The notes below the pieces were generated by a model that was not told the DNA's origin, made no database searches, and saw nothing but the letters and a program-made list of their open reading frames with translations. This document shows, piece by piece, positions 4,825-32,124 of a stretch of 64,000 nt of DNA (position 1 is the first letter of the stretch; each line of letters starts with the position of its first letter). Source of the stretch: an uncultured Alphaproteobacteria bacterium (GTDB taxonomy: Bacteria > Pseudomonadota > Alphaproteobacteria > Rs-D84); assembly GCA_944389185.1 (NCBI GenBank), contig CALXLL010000001.1:93014-157013 (forward strand), given 5' to 3'. A program made the translations under genes and the position numbers.

Positions 4825-6168
4825 TCAATGCTCTATAGCCATTTGTATTAATTGTTTTGATTCTACTAAGAACTCCATAGGAAGTCTGGATAATATAGGA
4901 TTTGCTGTTGCGCCGATTATTAAAGCTATGGCTTGGTCTTCTGATATGCCGGCTTGTTCTAAGTAAAGCATTTGATTGGCGTCAATTGCGCCTGTGCTGG
5001 CTTCGTGACTTTGCTGATTTTCACCGTTATTATGTATTATTGTTGGTAAAGTATTTGATGTAGCGTTGTCTCCAACGATTCTTGTGTCGCATTTAGATGC
5101 GTTTTTACAATTTTTACCGCTAAAACTTACAAGACTTCTGAAAGTCTGTCTGGACCTATCGAGCGCTATACCATAAGAAACTATATTAGATACAGTGTCA
5201 TTACCAATATGTATCATTTTCGTTCCTGTGTCTGCTTGTTGATTACCGCGAGTTATTGCCAAAGAATAAAAATCGCTTGTAGATCCATCACCAGCAAGTA
5301 TAGTAGATGGGTATTTCCATGTTATAGCAGAGCCAACTTCTACTTGTGTCCAATCAAGTCTTGCGTTTTTTTCGCACTTTCCGCGTTTGGTTACAAAATT
5401 AAGAATACCACCGTCTGGAATAGTATGTTCAAAATCGCTGTATGTAGACATTTCTCCTGCATACCAGTTTTGAACAGTTGCATATTTTACGGTCGCATTT
5501 TCTTTTGTTATGATTTCAACGACACCGCTATGTAATTGATGATTTGGTCTTCTGGGGGCACTGCAACCTTCCATGTAACTTAGTTCTGAACCTTCGTCTG
5601 CGATTATTAAAGTTCTTTCAAATTGACCGATTTTTGCTGTTTCTATCCTGAAATAGCTTGCTAAATCAATAGGGCATTTTACACCTTTGGGAACGTATAC
5701 GAATGTCCCATCTGAAAACACCGCTGCATTTAAAGCTGCAAAAAAATTATCTGTTGAAGGAACTACCGACCCTAAATACTTTTTCACTAATTCCGGATGT
5801 TTTTGAACAGCTTCGGATAATGGTAAGAAGATTATACCTAATTTCTCTAATTCTTTACTGTATGATGTATGAACTGAACGACTGTCTATAACTGTATCTG
5901 TTGCCATACCAAGAAGGGCTTTTTGTTCGCTTTCTGATAAGCCCATTTTGTCATATGTTTTTTTTAAGTCAGAATTGTCTAAGGACTTTGCTTCGTTATA
6001 GTAATTTAATTCGTCGTAATTGATGTCTGGATAGGTTATTTCTGCCCAATTGGGTTCTTTCATTTTTTGCCATTTTTTAAACGCATCTATTCGCCAGTTT
6101 AATAACCAATCCGGTTCACCGCGCATATTGGATATGTTTTTTATAAGATTTTCTGATAACTTTGGCAT
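4825..6168 (-). CDS. sufB: Fe-S cluster assembly protein SufB
   Basis: 447 aa; the ATVQNWY segment and overall SufB/SufD-fold pattern; the N-terminal region resembles SufB rather than SufD. Confidence 0.75.
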   Translation of the reverse strand: MPKLSENLIKNISNMRGEPDWLLNWRIDAFKKWQKMKEPNWAEITYPDINYDELNYYNEAKSLDNSDLKKTYDKMGLSESEQKALLGMATDTVIDSRSVHTSYSKELEKLGIIFLPLSEAVQKHPELVKKYLGSVVPSTDNFFAALNAAVFSDGTFVYVPKGVKCPIDLASYFRIETAKIGQFERTLIIADEGSELSYMEGCSAPRRPNHQLHSGVVEIITKENATVKYATVQNWYAGEMSTYSDFEHTIPDGGILNFVTKRGKCEKNARLDWTQVEVGSAITWKYPSTILAGDGSTSDFYSLAITRGNQQADTGTKMIHIGNDTVSNIVSYGIALDRSRQTFRSLVSFSGKNCKNASKCDTRIVGDNATSNTLPTIIHNNGENQQSHEASTGAIDANQMLYLEQAGISEDQAIALIIGATANPILSRLPMEFLVESKQLIQMAIEH

Positions 6169-6173
6169 ATCTT

Positions 6174-6716
6174 TTATTCGTCTTGATTTGCTAGTTGTTG
6201 TGCCTGAGCAAAAAATGTTATGGATTGACCCAATAAACCGTCGGTAAATGTTGCAGTTAGTATGCCGTCTGGCTCGTTATTCGATAGGTATTGTAAAAAT
6301 CCGTTAGCGCGCTTCATATAATTATCTACGTTTCTAGCTATTTCAGAATCTAACTTAATACTGCGACGAAGTTTTTCTAGGGCAAAAGGGTTCTTGGCAT
6401 ATTCGTCCATTATACCACCCAATGCACGCCACAATGGATGTTCAGGTGTTTGACGTGGCATTATATCTATGGCGGCCATAATAGGAATTAGATTTTGCAA
6501 CAGGTCTTGATATATCATTTCGGCATGTTCTGTTACGGTGTTGGTTGCCGATTTGTTTTTTAGTAGTGATTGAATTTTTACTATTAAATTATATTCAAGA
6601 TTTTGGCTTTTTATAACATTCTTTATTTTTTTGTTTGAATGTAAAGCTATTAATAACGAAACTATATTTAATAATATCAAAACTATAAAAAATACTAAAT
6701 ATAACGTGTTTGACAT
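6174..6716 (-). CDS. hypothetical membrane-anchored protein (one N-terminal TM helix), upstream of sufBC
   Basis: 180 aa; hydrophobic N-terminus LYLVFFIVLILLNIVSLLIAL; no recognised motif. Confidence 0.35.
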   Translation of the reverse strand: MSNTLYLVFFIVLILLNIVSLLIALHSNKKIKNVIKSQNLEYNLIVKIQSLLKNKSATNTVTEHAEMIYQDLLQNLIPIMAAIDIMPRQTPEHPLWRALGGIMDEYAKNPFALEKLRRSIKLDSEIARNVDNYMKRANGFLQYLSNNEPDGILTATFTDGLLGQSITFFAQAQQLANQDE

Positions 6717-6892
6717 AGATACTCCTGCAAAATTATTACTTTATTACTGCAGTATAACATCTTTTATCGATTCGTGCGATTCCAAACAAAAAATATATTT
6801 TTCTTGTCAAAATTGCATGTTTTTTTAATCTTGCACAGATTCGGTCAAGTTGTTATAATATATATAATAATAGTTTAGGAAAGGAAGTAATT

Positions 6893-7810
6893 ATGTTCCG
6901 TAAGATTTTTATTGCAGCTATGTTCGCAACCGCTGCTGGTTATTGCTTTGCAGCAGATAATTTGCCACAAATCGTTACTTCAGAAGTTTTTTACGTTCAG
7001 GATAAGGACGTGAACGAAACGCAGCAAGTGCAACAAAATACAGAACAATATCAAGCTCAACAAGTGATACCTGTTTGGCCTATCGCAGGGTCAGAAGCCG
7101 ATGTTGAACCTGTTTGCGACGGCGAAAAGTGCACAGAAAACACATCTGATAATATAAGAATTGTCTCTAAAATAGGGGCAGATTTGGTGGTTGAAAATAA
7201 TTTTAATCTGGGTGCAAAAAATCTTGAAGGAACTTGGTCTGGTGGGGCAAATATGCTTCATGGAAATCAAATACCAGTTGGGTTTGATGACGAATGCAAT
7301 AATGGTTCTGAAATGCCATTGCTTCATCGTGAAATGCTTGAAGACGACGGGGGAACGGTTTTGGCTGTTGCTCGTAGTGGAAGAAATAATTGTAATAATT
7401 CTTATGCTGATGGGTATGAAGCTTTTGTTGAAAAAATGGGCTTGAAAGTAGAAGACGTAGAAAATGCAAATGACGACGTGACTATTGAAGATACAGAAAC
7501 AGAAATATCAGTAGATATCTCTGCAGACGCAGAACCTGACGTTATATTAACGGACCAAGTCAGGTCTTGGGTTGTCGCAAATGGTCAAACCTTACGTGAA
7601 GTTTTGCAAGATTGGTGTAATAAAGAAGGTTGGGATTTGGTTTGGACTACACCACGTGAATATCCAATAGAAGCAAGTGCTGTGTTTAAAGGACGTTTTG
7701 TTGATGTTGCTTCTGCATTAGTTCGTAATTTCGGGCGTGCTACACCTATACCTTATGCAAAGTTTTATAAGGGTAATAGGGTGTTGGTTATATCGACTTC
7801 GGAAGAGTAA
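6893..7810 (+). CDS. secreted PilL/TcpQ-like protein (type IVb pilus / conjugative-pilus assembly accessory domain at C-terminus)
   Basis: Signal peptide MFRKIFIAAMFATAAGYCFA; acidic middle region; C-terminal ~90 aa (TLREVLQDWCNKEGWDLVWT...FKGRFVDVASALV...FYKGNRVLVIS) matches the TcpQ/PilL domain pattern as I recall it. Confidence 0.4.
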   Translation: MFRKIFIAAMFATAAGYCFAADNLPQIVTSEVFYVQDKDVNETQQVQQNTEQYQAQQVIPVWPIAGSEADVEPVCDGEKCTENTSDNIRIVSKIGADLVVENNFNLGAKNLEGTWSGGANMLHGNQIPVGFDDECNNGSEMPLLHREMLEDDGGTVLAVARSGRNNCNNSYADGYEAFVEKMGLKVEDVENANDDVTIEDTETEISVDISADAEPDVILTDQVRSWVVANGQTLREVLQDWCNKEGWDLVWTTPREYPIEASAVFKGRFVDVASALVRNFGRATPIPYAKFYKGNRVLVISTSEE

Positions 7811-26991: not shown

Positions 26992-27934
26992 ATATCTTAT
27001 TTGCAGAGTTCATAATTTTATTTATTTCGTTAACGCAATTTTTATAAATATTTTCTTTTCCTGCGCTTAAATAAAATCTGGGATTAAAATCTGACGGTTT
27101 TTTTCTTAAAGATTCTCTGACGCCGGCTGTGAAAGCTAATCTTGAATCGCTATCTATATTTACTTTGCAGATATTCATGCTAATAGCTTTTTTTATTTGA
27201 GCGATTGGGATCCCAAAAGCATTTTTTATATTTCCACCGTTTTTGTTGATAGTTGTTATAAAGTTTTGCGGAATAGTTGATGCACCATGTAAAACAAGCG
27301 GATATTTCGGTAATTTGTTAAATATTTCTTTTAATATATCAAATCTTAATTTCTCGTTTACCGTTTTTCTTTTGTAAGCGCCGTGACTTGTTCCAACAGC
27401 AACAGCTAAAGAATCTGTGCCTGTTTCTTTTATGAATTTAATTGCTTCCGCAGGGTCTGTATAGTTGCTGTAATCGCCAAAAGTATTTTCGTCTTCTATA
27501 CCTGATAAGGTCCCAAGTTCTGCTTCAACAGAAACCCCGTATTTATGAGCAAAATCAACTACTTTTTTAGATAATTTTATATTTTCTTTGAAAGGTAATT
27601 TACTGGCATCAATCATCACACTAGAAAAGCCCAGCTTTATAGCGCGCTTGCATATATCAAAAGAAGAGCCATGATCAAGGTGAAGTGCAATTTTGTCTTT
27701 TCTGGAAAGTTTCAGGCCTTGTATCATACCAATCAGCATATCATCGCCCATATAATTTAAGGCTGATTCAGATACTGCCAGAATAACAGGGCTTTTTGTG
27801 TCTTTACTTGCTTTTATGATAGCTTGCAGGGTTTCCATGTTATAAAAATTAAAAGCTGGTATCGCATAACCACCAGATAAAGCATCTGAAAATAACTTTT
27901 TCGTGTTTATAAGGCCAAGTTCTTCAAAGCTCAT
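26990..27934 (-). CDS. fba: class II fructose-bisphosphate aldolase family protein
   Basis: LHLDHGSSFD, AIPAFNFYNME and VLHGAST motifs of class II aldolases. Confidence 0.75.
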   Translation of the reverse strand: MSFEELGLINTKKLFSDALSGGYAIPAFNFYNMETLQAIIKASKDTKSPVILAVSESALNYMGDDMLIGMIQGLKLSRKDKIALHLDHGSSFDICKRAIKLGFSSVMIDASKLPFKENIKLSKKVVDFAHKYGVSVEAELGTLSGIEDENTFGDYSNYTDPAEAIKFIKETGTDSLAVAVGTSHGAYKRKTVNEKLRFDILKEIFNKLPKYPLVLHGASTIPQNFITTINKNGGNIKNAFGIPIAQIKKAISMNICKVNIDSDSRLAFTAGVRESLRKKPSDFNPRFYLSAGKENIYKNCVNEINKIMNSANKI

Positions 27935-28081: not shown

Positions 28082-28489
28082 ATGAAAAAAGCTTTGATTA
28101 CAATATTTGCATTGGCAGGTTTATCAGGGTGTGTTTATTATGATTATTACAAAGGTGGCGTAAGATATACTCAGGACGGTGAAGATTGTATTTATTATGC
28201 AGGTGAATATGGCAGAAACTTTTCTGGGCGTATTGACGGGTTGGATAAAAATAAGAAAATTGTTTATCGTAATACTCGCTGCGCAGATTTGTATGCAAAA
28301 GATAATATGGATATTGCACCTAGTCAAGAACGTCAAGTTTTAGCACCAGCTGCAAAGCCTGCACCAAAACCTTGCGCAGCATGTGTTCAGCCACAGGTTC
28401 AATCTTGCAGTGCTTGTGCAACACAGGTTCAGACTTGCGAAAGCCAAAAAATTATTAGACGTAAATATGTAATCGTTCCGGCTATGTAA
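28082..28489 (+). CDS. lipoprotein, Cys-rich C-terminus, unknown function
   Basis: Lipobox LAGLSGC; C-terminal CAACVQPQVQSCSACATQVQTCESQ. Confidence 0.4.
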   Translation: MKKALITIFALAGLSGCVYYDYYKGGVRYTQDGEDCIYYAGEYGRNFSGRIDGLDKNKKIVYRNTRCADLYAKDNMDIAPSQERQVLAPAAKPAPKPCAACVQPQVQSCSACATQVQTCESQKIIRRKYVIVPAM

Positions 28490-28593: not shown

Positions 28594-28965
28594 ATGAAAA
28601 AGTTATTCCAGAAAATAGGTTTCGCTTCTTTGGTTTTGTTTTCCAGCAGTTTGGCCGCTTTCGCTGCTACAAGGGCAGGCGGTGCTGCCATGGGAAATGG
28701 TTTTTGTAATCTGATTGTAAGAATGCATGACGTTTTCGTATTGCTTAGAACTTTGGCTTTCGTCGGCGCCGCATTTATTATCGCCGGCTGGGCTTGGGGA
28801 ATGATAAAAGATGGAAAGGTTGACCAAGAAGATTTGAGAAAGAAAGGAACAGGTATGTTGGTCGGGTTTATACTTTTGTTTGCTATTGGTGTTGTCTTAT
28901 CGTTCTTCTTAAGTGCGACAGGTATGAATGCAATCGGGTGTTCAGATGTTATTCTTAATTGGTAA
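28594..28965 (+). CDS. small membrane protein with VirB2/TrbC-pilin-like architecture (tentative)
   Basis: Signal peptide followed by two hydrophobic helices separated by a short loop, 123 aa. Architecture only. Confidence 0.3.
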   Translation: MKKLFQKIGFASLVLFSSSLAAFAATRAGGAAMGNGFCNLIVRMHDVFVLLRTLAFVGAAFIIAGWAWGMIKDGKVDQEDLRKKGTGMLVGFILLFAIGVVLSFFLSATGMNAIGCSDVILNW

Positions 28966-28967
28966 TT

Positions 28968-28998
28968 AAAAAAAGCGACTTAACAGTCGCTTTTTTTT
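28968..28998. terminator. bidirectional rho-independent terminator
   Basis: agcgact-taac-agtcgct hairpin with an A-run before and a T-run after. Confidence 0.5.
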
Positions 28999-29917
28999 AC
29001 TTAGTTTTAATTTTCATTTCTTGTGCTTTGTTGAAAAAGTCTTTTTCTATTTTTTTAAGCTCGGATTTAACTTTTGTTATATGATTTTTGCTTATAAGTT
29101 GTTCCGGAGATTTGTTTGTGGTTAGTATAATGTTCTTCCTGGCTTTGTATAATTCTTCAATTAATATTTGTTGAAACGTTTCAAAGCTTATATGCGGATT
29201 CGTATCGTTCTTTGATATAGCGTTACGTAAAGCAATCGTTTTCTTATGAAGTGAATAAGCCGTCATATAATTTGCAATCGGGTCGTTTTCTTTTATTGGT
29301 ATCCCCATATTCGATTTTATTACATCTGTATCCCAACTGTAAAAATACGCTTTGTGCAGTCTGTTATTAAAATGTCGCATATCTGCGTGATTTCTATACG
29401 CTATGGCGTTAACGATTTTTTCTTGCTTTGCAAGGTTTTTACGTAAATATATGCGTGAAAAATATTTTGCCTGTTTAACAATGTCTTCATATTTTAGATT
29501 CGGTTGTATAAAATAAAGCTGAGAAAAAATTAAGTTATCCCATTCGTGTAGTAAAGCCCAACAGGCAAAGCGACTTAATTTGAAATCTTGACCGTTTAAT
29601 ATGTTTTTTGTCCCATGATAGTCTTTTATTTTATAATCATGGTATATTGATATTATATGGTCTTGATATAAATTAAAAGTATTTTTTTGGAGTAAATTAA
29701 TATTGTTTAAGGCGTGCCATATTTGGTTAGGAGTTTCTTCAGAATAATAAAGGTAAGGGGTTTTGTATAAATTATATAAATCCGAAAATAACCAATATTC
29801 AGTATCGATATTTGTTACAGGATTTGGAAATAAAGAGTATTTTTCTGTTTCGTTTATAAAATGCTTTTTTTGTTCAAGTGTATTAAAAACGGTTTTGGGG
29901 CTGGGTTTGAATAGCAT
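28997..29917 (-). CDS. hypothetical protein (306 aa), translationally coupled downstream of an RHH gene
   Basis: Intact ORF; aromatic and Lys/Asn-rich; its ATG lies 2 nt after the upstream gene's stop (TAGTTATG on the minus strand); no recognised catalytic motif. Confidence 0.45.
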   Translation of the reverse strand: MLFKPSPKTVFNTLEQKKHFINETEKYSLFPNPVTNIDTEYWLFSDLYNLYKTPYLYYSEETPNQIWHALNNINLLQKNTFNLYQDHIISIYHDYKIKDYHGTKNILNGQDFKLSRFACWALLHEWDNLIFSQLYFIQPNLKYEDIVKQAKYFSRIYLRKNLAKQEKIVNAIAYRNHADMRHFNNRLHKAYFYSWDTDVIKSNMGIPIKENDPIANYMTAYSLHKKTIALRNAISKNDTNPHISFETFQQILIEELYKARKNIILTTNKSPEQLISKNHITKVKSELKKIEKDFFNKAQEMKIKTK

Positions 29918-29919
29918 AA

Positions 29920-30156
29920 CTATACCTTTTTTTCTTCTTCTATATTGGCCAAAGAAAATAGAACCGAAGATATTAAAGATTGATAAGGAACATGCTGTTG
30001 TTCTGCCAGCTTTTTAATACTGTCCAGAATAGGGCGTGGTATTCGCATATTTATAACGCAATCTGATTTATTGAAAGCCCTGTAAGCGGCGTATTCTTTT
30101 AATAAAGATTCTATGTTCATAACGAACAGTTGTTGCATAACGTTTGGCATATACAC
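29920..30156 (-). CDS. ribbon-helix-helix DNA-binding protein, BrnA/CopG-antitoxin-like
   Basis: C-terminal INMRIPRPILDSIKKLAEQQHVPYQSLISSVL fits an RHH strand plus helix, with the g.gYQt.IN-type motif of BrnA-like antitoxins; 78 aa. Confidence 0.4.
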   Translation of the reverse strand: MYMPNVMQQLFVMNIESLLKEYAAYRAFNKSDCVINMRIPRPILDSIKKLAEQQHVPYQSLISSVLFSLANIEEEKKV

Positions 30157-30208
30157 AATCTCCTATACAGACTGCAATACTTGCGTCTTTACAATTGACT
30201 ATATCATC

Positions 30209-30228
30209 GTATTGACACTTGTCAATAC
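30209..30228. promoter_or_regulatory. inverted repeat GTATTGACA-ct-TGTCAATAC (candidate operator) in the divergent RHH/tolB promoter region
   Basis: 9-bp perfect arms; an extra ATTGAC copy at 30194..30199; direct repeat TTGTGTTTA at 30231 and 30243. Confidence 0.35.
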
Positions 30229-30389
30229 ATTTGTGTTTATGCTTGTGTTTACCTTTGTAAAGACCGGTGTGTAGAATGGTGTATTGTCTGCTCTTTTGTA
30301 TGGTGTGCTTTTGGGTTTTTATGTCGGCATACCTTGATTTTTGTGAATAATATTTATAAAATGTCTTGGTATTTTGGAAAGGATTTATC

Positions 30390-31709
30390 ATGATGAAAAA
30401 GATGTTATCGTTTGTTTTTGCTGTTATGTGTTTTGTCGTGACAGCGCATGCAGAACTAAAAGTTGATATTATAGCGGGGGCAGCAGAACCTATACCCGTT
30501 GCTATCCAAAAACTGGAAACGGTTGGTAATGTATCTTCTGATGATGCCAAAATGATACGTGAAGTCGTTGAAAATGATTTAAAATCGTCGGGATTGTTTC
30601 GTATAGTTTCTCATGACGCTTTTCCAGAATTCGTAGAAATGGGCGAAATGCCTAACTTTAAATTATGGTCTGCAATAAAAACTCAGGTGCTGGTGCAAGC
30701 AAAGTTATCTGCTGAATCTGGCGGTAAATATGATCTTGAATTTTACGTATGGGACGTTAACGGTAAAGAACAAATAGAAGCTCAAAGTCTTGTTTCGTCT
30801 AAAAAATCTGTCAGAAGATTGGCGCATATTATGGCAGACGCTATTTTTGAAAGGTTAACAGGCGAAACGGGTTATTTTGATACTCAGATAGTTTTCATCG
30901 CAGAAACAGGACCTGTTCATAATAGAAACAAGCGTATGGCTATTATGGATCAAGATGGTTTCGGTATGCGGTATTTGTCAGATGATAAGACTTTCGTTAT
31001 GTCACCACATTTTTCACCGAATATGCAGACTATCGTTTTCTTATCGTTTAGAAATGATGATCCTATGGTGTGGACTCTGGATTTAAATACGGGCGAGCAA
31101 AGAAGATTAGGTCAATTCGGCGGTATGAACTTTGCACCAAGATTTTCACCTGATGGAACAAAAATTGCTTTGTCTTTGGTTAAAAACGGTATTACTCATA
31201 TATATGAATATGATATAGAATCTAAAACGTTAAAGCAGTTGACTTTCGGCCGTTCATTAAATACCAGTCCTTCTTATTCACCTGACGGTAAAAAACTTGC
31301 CTTTAATTCTGATAGGTCAGGTAATCAGCAGATTCATATATTAGATTTAGAAACAGGTAAGGAAAAAAGAATTACTTATGGGGCAGGGCGTTATGCTACG
31401 CCTGCATGGTCACCAGACGGAAAGTTCATAGCTTTTACTAAAATGGCAGACGATACTTTTTATATTGGTATTATGAATCCAGAAGGTCGTAATGAAAAAA
31501 TCTTGGCAGGAGGATGGTATATGGAAGCTCCATCTTGGGCACCTGGTTCCAGACGCGTCGTTTATTATGAAACAGAAAAAGCCTTGGACGATATAGAAAG
31601 AATAAGCCATATCAGGACCGTTGATATAACAGGTCAAAACGTTTACGACATTGAATTGCCAGACGGTATAAACGGGGTTGAACCAACGTGGTCCCCAAGA
31701 CTGCCTTAA
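30390..31709 (+). CDS. tolB: Tol-Pal system periplasmic protein TolB
   Basis: Signal peptide; repeated SPDG(K/T)..A(F/L) beta-propeller blades. Start taken at MMKKMLSF. Confidence 0.85.
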   Translation: MMKKMLSFVFAVMCFVVTAHAELKVDIIAGAAEPIPVAIQKLETVGNVSSDDAKMIREVVENDLKSSGLFRIVSHDAFPEFVEMGEMPNFKLWSAIKTQVLVQAKLSAESGGKYDLEFYVWDVNGKEQIEAQSLVSSKKSVRRLAHIMADAIFERLTGETGYFDTQIVFIAETGPVHNRNKRMAIMDQDGFGMRYLSDDKTFVMSPHFSPNMQTIVFLSFRNDDPMVWTLDLNTGEQRRLGQFGGMNFAPRFSPDGTKIALSLVKNGITHIYEYDIESKTLKQLTFGRSLNTSPSYSPDGKKLAFNSDRSGNQQIHILDLETGKEKRITYGAGRYATPAWSPDGKFIAFTKMADDTFYIGIMNPEGRNEKILAGGWYMEAPSWAPGSRRVVYYETEKALDDIERISHIRTVDITGQNVYDIELPDGINGVEPTWSPRLP

Positions 31710-31710
31710 T

Positions 31711-32124
31711 ATGAAAAGTTGTGGTTTAGCTTTTGTTTTATGCTTTTGTTTTTCAACTGCGGTTTTTGCGTATCCCGCAGTTGTTGATTACATTTTTGAC
31801 GGTGATACTTTTGCAGCATATGTTATGCTTGATGAAGATATAAAAGTGGCCGCCAGAATCAGAATAATAAATGTTGATACACCAGAAATACATGGTGATT
31901 GTGAATATGAAATAAATATGGCAAATAAAGCAAAAGAAAGACTTGCTGAGTTATTGCCTGTCGGTTCGGTTGTAGAATTGAAAGAAATAAAAGATGATAA
32001 ATACCTTGGCAGAATAGACGCCAGAGTTTTTACTGGCGATAATAAAGATGTTGGTAAAATCTTAATAGAAGAAAAGCTTGGCAGAGAATATAGCGGTGGA
32101 AAAAGATTGCCTTGGTGTAAATAA
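31711..32124 (+). CDS. secreted thermonuclease (SNase-like)
   Basis: Signal peptide MKSCGLAFVLCFCFSTAVFA; SNase motif RIRIINVDTPE; ~137 aa. Start taken inside the ORF-track ORF. Confidence 0.6.
   Translation: MKSCGLAFVLCFCFSTAVFAYPAVVDYIFDGDTFAAYVMLDEDIKVAARIRIINVDTPEIHGDCEYEINMANKAKERLAELLPVGSVVELKEIKDDKYLGRIDARVFTGDNKDVGKILIEEKLGREYSGGKRLPWCK

Follow-up and report, generated by a model that had tools for sequence, protein, structure and literature searches.

A conserved ribbon-helix-helix gene paired with a fast-evolving DinD-family gene beside tolB in the Rs-D84 lineage

The gene pair and its chromosomal position

The window (the whole 64,000-nucleotide [nt] stretch of DNA analyzed here) carries, next to tolB, a two-gene operon on its minus strand, in which a small gene for a ribbon-helix-helix (RHH) protein precedes a gene for a 306-amino-acid (aa) protein of the DinD family. 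The two genes and the terminator behind them are as follows.

29920..30150, minus strand: putative RHH repressor gene, which starts at ATG 30150 and encodes 76 aa, with a predicted N-terminal helix followed by an Arc/CopG-like ribbon-helix-helix
28997..29917, minus strand: DinD-family gene, 306 aa, containing LHEWDNL, with a divergent Bro-N-type N-domain and a helical C-terminal domain typical of DinD
28968..28997, no strand assigned: bidirectional intrinsic terminator, a 13-pair stem between A and T runs

An open reading frame (ORF) scan placed both genes on the minus strand with a gap of 2 nt between them, the small ORF ending at 29920 and the large one beginning downstream of it, as the first-pass annotation of this DNA had described. 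The flanking elements that it named were also present, namely, the terminator at 28968-28997, which is common to the DinD-like gene and a convergent gene for a 123-aa membrane protein, and the divergent tolB, which actually begins at ATG 30390. The length of 78 aa that had been given for the small protein was revised. That ORF (29920..30156, minus strand) would begin at GTG 30156; since an alignment of 40 orthologous upstream regions indicated that the start kept across relatives is ATG 30150 (MPNVMQQ...), with AGGAG 9 nt before it, the small protein is 76 aa long, not 78. No BrnT (DUF497) or RelE-like gene was found at the locus and no BrnT in the gene tables of the relatives, and the small overlapping ORFs, when checked for a hidden toxin, gave no toxin-family match. 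In agreement with the annotation's remark that a partner of BrnT or RelE size is missing, the sole partner of the RHH gene is the DinD-like gene.

The large protein had been thought to contain no recognizable domain, a description that profile comparisons overturned. The PADLOC model PDLC04919 (PDC-S13) matches the protein full length (residues 37-297, E 1.6e-17), and phrog_8036 matches it likewise. Since E. coli DinD scores 402 bits on PDLC04919, this model corresponds to the DinD family. When the clade alignment of the large protein was compared by hhalign, it matched E. coli DinD with a probability of 92.9% and a 19-member DinD alignment with a probability of 99.7% (E 2e-25, 239 columns, DinD residues 17-274); the latter match included the Bro-N region, which Pfam finds in 15 of the 19 members. 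Phage genes annotated DinD were among the tblastn matches of the large protein. Pfam and NCBIfam gave no match to the 306-aa protein itself, nor did Pfam to any of 20 clade members, and Bro-N (PF02498) in particular matched 0 of these 20 even at E values up to 5. Judged by these alignments, the 306-aa protein belongs to the DinD family over its full length, though as a very divergent member. Its AlphaFold2 model (predicted local distance difference test [pLDDT] 86.5, predicted template modeling score 0.83) gave a weak, non-significant Foldseek match to DdrC (probability 0.69, E 0.4), and a sequence search of the PDB with the profile of the large-protein family returned nothing relevant.

The small protein scores 36.7 bits over residues 27-66 against Pfam CopG_antitoxin (PF12441; gathering cut-off, 28 bits), which bears out its earlier assignment to the RHH family of CopG_antitoxin/BrnA, and its orthologues are annotated by NCBI as "BrnA antitoxin family protein." Against the BrnA equivalog NF047399 of NCBIfam it reached 21.8 bits, below the cut-off of 60. 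The nearest solved structures by sequence are P22 Arc repressors, with a weak match (E 0.15) that spans the DNA-reading strand and helix A (INMRIPRPILDSIKKLAEQQ versus FNLRWPREVLDLVRKVAEEN). In the profile scan, the similarity to Arc is sub-threshold, at 15.5 bits versus 20.4. The AlphaFold2 monomer, which is of low confidence (pLDDT 64), consists of an N-terminal helix, an extended segment, and two further helices; Arc, CopG, and AmrZ recur among its top fold matches, all of them non-significant at E >1.

About 50 loci were retrieved via the 306-aa protein, of which 45 (44 distinct places) form the main set. The relatives that carry them are Candidatus Enterousia (order Rs-D84) and related alphaproteobacterial gut metagenome-assembled genomes. 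Enterousia belongs to the order Rs-D84, in which genomes measure about 0.75-1.0 Mb (PMC12306168); the one circular genome among the relatives measures 958,618 bp. In the 45 loci, wherever the contig reaches, tolB diverges from the RHH and DinD-like genes, and these converge on the gene for the 123-aa membrane protein and, beyond it, a gene for a 135-aa lipoprotein. The RHH gene also lies directly upstream of the large gene in 5 of 5 further divergent representative loci with the pair (L047, L048, L049, L052, and L057). In L049 and L057, where the large protein matches the family profile with E values of only 1e-16 and 9e-12, tolB is found upstream of the pair; in L052 the downstream flank is visible, and the L047 and L048 contigs end before either flank. 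The position beside tolB is kept even at large-protein identities as low as 30-46%. Outside the clade, no RHH gene neighbors the ordinary DinD genes of E. coli, L050, or L055, and the RHH-DinD pairing is clade-specific. A separate observation concerns L052 (GCA_965335215.1), in which a tandem duplicate of the DinD-like gene (283 aa and 280 aa) stands behind a single RHH gene at positions 840-2543.

By gene order and sequence, then, the pair is chromosomally fixed and vertically inherited in the Candidatus Enterousia/Rs-D84 lineage. The first-pass annotation had taken it for an inserted two-gene module and had named beforehand, as evidence that would speak against this, a position kept across relatives; the synteny check found the same tolB-adjacent site in all relatives examined. 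Recent insertion is ruled out by this synteny, and the large gene is only slightly poorer in GC (27-33% versus 35-40%). Because the pair holds one position in all relatives examined, a classical mobile toxin-antitoxin (TA) system is unlikely.

Conservation and recombination

Pairwise identities were computed over 40 loci for the two proteins of the operon and for TolB.

TolB, 40 loci: median pairwise identity 0.83
RHH protein, 40 loci: median pairwise identity 0.81
DinD-like protein, 40 loci: median pairwise identity 0.35, range 0.24-0.98

Residues 1-68 of the RHH protein are near-invariant across the clade, with variation confined to the tail, and even the RHH protein of the GC-rich lineage L047 is nearly identical to that of the window. 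The DinD-like proteins are only ~55% identical where TolB identity is 90-95%. Given that the identities of TolB and the DinD-like protein correlate (Spearman 0.85), descent has been mainly vertical but very fast. The DinD-like ORF is intact in 45 of 45 loci, at 301-321 aa, and its ratio of nonsynonymous to synonymous divergence (dN/dS) is 0.05-0.20 in close pairs, a sequence pattern that indicates purifying selection on the gene.

Between the window and its close relative L001, synonymous divergence (dS) is 0.21 in the DinD-like gene and 0-0.04 in the neighboring genes. The differences are grouped in patches, with 38 in the 145 nt at 29001-29144 and 11 in the 27 nt at 29726-29752, and to judge from the sequence these patches look like gene-conversion tracts from divergent alleles. 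The same pattern was seen for L005 versus L029 (dS 0.70 versus 0.03-0.12). For L038 and L040, at about 5728-6900, it is the RHH and DinD-like module that is near-identical, with a dS of ~0.1 as against ~1.1 in the flanks; the whole module has therefore been exchanged between species, recently, by homologous recombination. Beyond the operon, the gene for the 123-aa protein bears signatures of allele replacement in some pairs, as in L027/L028 (57% identity, dS 1.3), and part of the fructose-bisphosphate aldolase gene (window 27100-27300) differs at 17 nt from the otherwise near-identical L001. The latter patch implies that mosaic recombination tracts are not limited to the DinD-like gene.

Promoters and the phased array

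The region between the RHH gene and tolB contains the following elements.

30160..30164, minus strand: ribosome-binding site (RBS) AGGAG of the RHH gene, inside the last array unit, GTATAGGAG; kept in the 40-locus alignment
30157..30288, minus strand: array of 11 units of 12 nt each, G(T/C)-N4-AC(A), the presumed multi-dimer RHH operator
30198..30225, minus strand: operon promoter, with -35 TTGACA at 30220-30225, a 16-nt spacer, and a TG-extended -10 TATAGT at 30198-30203
30209..30228, no strand assigned: 20-bp palindrome, GTATTGACA/TGTCAATAC at 30209-30217/30220-30228
30334..30362, plus strand: divergent tolB promoter, TTGATT, a 17-nt spacer, and TAAAAT, ~45 nt beyond the array; kept in the clade as CTTGCTTTTT...TATAAAAT

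The operon promoter is the best match in the region, with 11 of 12 consensus positions plus the TG motif, and both of its hexamers are invariant in the loci of all relatives. The palindrome occurs once in the window, against 0.02 matches expected by chance. It is accompanied by an additional ATTGAC half-site at about 30197-30202 and by a direct repeat of TTGTGTTTA at 30231 and 30243, 12 nt apart, and each of these elements, which the first-pass annotation had listed, was found where it had placed them. The autoregulatory operator that it made of them stood in part. The repeats do overlap a strong promoter; the palindrome, however, is merely two units of the 11-unit array, since it consists of unit 0 (GTATTGAC) beside its reverse complement, unit +1 (GTCAATAC), just as the direct repeat consists of units -1 and -2. 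Given that TTGACA of the operon promoter lies at 30220-30225, it is the left arm of the palindrome that supplies the -35 box. A perfect right arm occurs in 15 of 39 relatives (16 of 40 including the window); in the others it reads TGCCAATAC or TGTATTTAC. The palindrome was rejected as a single classical two-arm operator, since over half of the species have a degenerate right arm, whereas the 12-nt GT...AC register is kept.

The array was compared in 42 distinct sequences anchored on GTATTGACAA. From offset -60 to offset +60, the 12-mers have G(T/C) at their start and carry AC(A) at positions 7-9. In most units, conservation is 95-100% at position 1 (G) and at positions 7-8 (AC), with variable bases in between. 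The GT-N4-AC unit is itself two-fold symmetric. The array begins ~60 nt upstream of the -35 box and continues through the -35 box, the spacer, and the 5' untranslated region (5'UTR) to the RBS. Three phased units were found only here in the window (0.03 expected). Two lineages, L047 and L049, have lost exactly one 12-nt unit, at offset +48 (GTATTG...), with the phase of the other units kept, and the array is retained in L047 in spite of its GC-rich genome. The distance from the array to the tolB promoter is variable, the intergenic length ranging from 183 to 493 nt across the clade. No alphaproteobacterial LexA box (GTTC-N7-GTTC) is present in the intergenic region. As for an RNA element, Rfam gave only sub-threshold, terminator-like matches, and the fold of the 5'UTR is not significant (z -1.5).

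Several observations were made on the flanking genes. At window 30390-32124, tolB is solitary and detached from tolQRA, with its own kept promoter, and is followed by a gene for a secreted SNase-like (thermonuclease-type) protein rather than by pal. Since the OmpA/Pal-like gene lies ~4 kb away, the usual tol-pal operon has been broken up in this lineage. On the other side, both genes convergent with the module are on the plus strand: the 123-aa protein (window 28594-28965) has two transmembrane segments and weakly matches TIGR03745, an integrative and conjugative element membrane protein (17 bits), and the lipoprotein gene lies at 28082-28489. They are syntenic clade-wide yet fast-evolving, with 42-69% (123-aa protein) and 46-64% (135-aa protein) identity to the window. 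Between the lipoprotein and aldolase genes there is a variable insertion in L006 (7996-11045) and also in L010, L012, L015, L019, L020, L031, and L046; that of L006 encodes one 425-aa protein and three paralogues of ~156 aa, with 0 Pfam matches.

Interpretation and comparison with known systems

The reading that we favor, and to which we give moderate confidence, is that of a fixed operon in which an autorepressor of the Arc/CopG type keeps a DinD-like, conflict-related effector tightly silenced. Dimers of the 76-aa RHH protein would line up on the ~11 two-fold-symmetric GT-N4-AC sites, 12 bp apart, and their occupancy of the array would cover the near-consensus extended -10 promoter, the region of the transcription start, and the RBS. 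Such autorepression may keep a very strong promoter almost shut and the DinD-like gene off. E. coli DinD and the Bro/Ant proteins of phages suggest, by analogy, that the DinD-like protein might act on DNA or on a DNA-bound partner, for example, RecA or a foreign repressor, and it would probably be harmful if overproduced. It may be an effector in genetic conflict with phages or mobile DNA, with the repressor as a conserved safety catch. The conflict role is suggested because the effector is extremely divergent, shows elevated dS, is mosaic, and has been exchanged and duplicated, in contrast to the near-frozen repressor and operator. A more far-reaching version, in which the near-invariant RHH protein polymerizes over ~130 bp of phased sites and so silences a hypervariable DinD gene as a vertically inherited core immunity or addiction locus of the whole order, seems to us rather unlikely.

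Several points weigh against the conflict-effector reading. The dN/dS values are below 1, so that "conflict" is argued from rate, elevated dS, and mosaicism only, and divergent patches are also found in the genes for the 123-aa and 135-aa proteins and in part of the aldolase gene. A factor other than the RHH protein could recognize the array, whose 12-bp spacing exceeds one helical turn and is unusual among RHH operators. A Foldseek search of the 306-aa AlphaFold2 model against the PDB and BFVD found nothing at E <0.001 and suggested no activity. The link to defense that the first-pass annotation had raised is borne out only insofar as PADLOC lists the family as a phage-defense candidate. PDC systems are untested candidates from "guilt-by-embedding" in BREX, DISARM, and type I restriction-modification (RM) loci (bioRxiv 10.1101/2024.01.29.577857), and PDC-S13 owes its label to that argument. 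The copy described here sits in no defense system; it lies outside RM, BREX, and DISARM loci and is flanked by tolB and by the membrane-protein and lipoprotein genes in all loci.

The layout of the operon, with a small DNA-binding gene first, a 2-nt gap, and an operator over the promoter, is the classical one of type II TA systems, and the pair could be a domesticated member of that group. The DinD-like protein would then be a growth-arresting toxin, and the RHH protein an antitoxin that binds it via the N-terminal helix and represses the operon, with conditional cooperativity on the array. The RHH protein does belong to a Pfam family named for BrnA antitoxins, a name that the annotation of its orthologues repeats, and the two genes were exchanged jointly between two species (L038/L040). 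Moreover, Bro-N proteins, which in phages are antirepressor-type binders of DNA or of a partner, inhibited growth and caused filamentation when overexpressed (PMC4257102). In the only Bro pair tried, however, the adjacent regulator failed to neutralize toxicity (PMC4257102), no validated toxin family includes the large protein, and the BrnA equivalog cut-off was missed. TA systems typically have a patchy distribution, are mobile, and are seldom found in small genomes (PMC2701414), whereas this pair is fixed at one syntenic site in all relatives examined, in genomes of about 1 Mb (PMC12306168). A near-invariant antitoxin beside a partner at 35% median identity is also the opposite of the usual coevolution, and we regard the TA explanation as possible but unlikely.

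Strictly vertical, universal presence would also suit a core function, and the large protein is a full-length homologue of E. coli DinD. According to Uranga 2011, as cited in PMC4849656, the E. coli protein removes RecA filaments, which raises the possibility of a housekeeping recombination regulator that dismantles RecA filaments after repair. The RHH protein would have replaced LexA, in keeping with the missing LexA box, and the divergence would reflect weak constraint in a drifting, reduced genome. Given that RecA is highly conserved, however, 25-35% identity would be unexpected beside TolB at 83%, and elevated synonymous divergence with mosaic patches points to allele import rather than drift alone; the tandem duplicate in L052 likewise suggests diversification. 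To our knowledge, deletion of dinD in E. coli has no strong phenotype, which we count as a further argument against this role, and we consider it quite improbable. Still less can be said for a scheme in which the RHH protein mainly regulates the divergent tolB, and through it the cell envelope, with the DinD-like gene as an operon passenger. The array takes up most of the stretch between the promoters and, in species whose spacers are short, directly adjoins the tolB -35 box; the conservation of the RHH protein equals that of TolB, and tolB stands away from tolQRA under its own kept promoter. Since the register of the array is fixed to the RHH promoter while the distance to the tolB promoter varies (intergenic length, 183-493 nt), and since the strongest, invariant units lie on the RHH -35 box, spacer, and 5'UTR, we judge this scheme very unlikely.

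DinD has long been known as an SOS gene, though with no settled physiological role, and its family has only recently been flagged as a phage-defense candidate. Through this locus, the DinD/PDC-S13 family gains a regulatory partner that is conserved and a setting in which its function can be tested: in a lineage stripped of most accessory functions, the family is universal under a dedicated, extremely conserved RHH protein, and the DinD-like gene has a rate of divergence close to that of known conflict genes. If the proposed silencing of a conflict effector is correct, the locus would offer a natural experiment on DinD-type function and an example of a defense- or TA-like module turned into a fixed core locus. 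It would also allow a multi-dimer RHH filament on a phased operator to be tested in a compact system, and the operator geometry would be new for RHH proteins. The core immunity or addiction version, if true, would provide the first functional context for DinD/PDC-S13, in a fixed module rather than a mobile defense island. Should both the repression and the conflict role fail, what is left would be a lineage-specific regulator-effector pair.

Among known systems, RHH operators with multiple sites (the omega heptad arrays, CopG, and the MetJ metboxes) are bound cooperatively by successive dimers at short symmetric or repeated sites over a promoter. The present array differs from them in its GT-N4-AC unit, its 12-bp period, and its extent of ~11 units across the 5'UTR and RBS, and we know of no described RHH operator with such a geometry. 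With E. coli DinD (b3645) and PDC-S13, the large protein shares the motifs W..a.dL..L.gY, D.KL(S/T)RYAC(Y/W), (S/A)Q.YF, R(I/V)..R..L..EK, and PE; its size is comparable to that of E. coli DinD (306 aa versus 274 aa), and homologues are found in phages too. Unlike those proteins, the clade members fall below the Pfam Bro-N threshold. In place of a LexA box there is a dedicated RHH gene upstream, and, unlike PDC-S13, the gene is found outside RM, BREX, and DISARM loci, fixed beside tolB and extremely fast-evolving.

The similarity to BrnT/BrnA comprises the PF12441 match, a predicted N-terminal helix with a C-terminal RHH, and a first gene of two with repeats over the promoter. The locus departs from that system in having no BrnT (DUF497), a missed BrnA equivalog, a 306-aa DinD-like partner, and a non-mobile position. 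More generally, its sequence anatomy resembles that of type II TA systems in being a two-gene operon with a small DNA-binding protein and a putative operator at its own promoter. Rather than being patchy and mobile, however, the pair is found at one site wherever a locus extends to the flanks, and its descent is mostly vertical. A small DNA-binding regulator beside a Bro-N-family protein is also found in the Xre-Bro pairs, which were described as TA-like but judged to be probably regulatory (Makarova et al. 2009, PMC2701414). Here, the regulator is an RHH protein and not an Xre helix-turn-helix, the C-domain is of the DinD type and not KilAC/ORF6C, and the locus belongs to the chromosomal core and not to a prophage.

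The arc-ant operon of P22 immI (record X01916) likewise has an Arc-type RHH gene followed by a gene for a ~300-aa partner-binding (antirepressor-type) protein, under a strong promoter overlapped by an RHH operator (putative in the present case). It differs in its prophage context, in having a Mnt-like second repressor, and in using a 21-bp site instead of 11 phased units. Homology of the 306-aa protein to P22 Ant (P22_AR_N plus P22_AR_C) was rejected (hhalign, 0.45%), and because the two are not homologous, the arc-ant likeness is an analogy only. Neither an RHH-DinD pair nor such an operator geometry was described in the searchable literature on PDC-S13, DinD, or Bro-N with an antitoxin or defense role. 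The locus is best classed as a combination of known kinds, an RHH-regulated two-gene module with a DinD-family effector.

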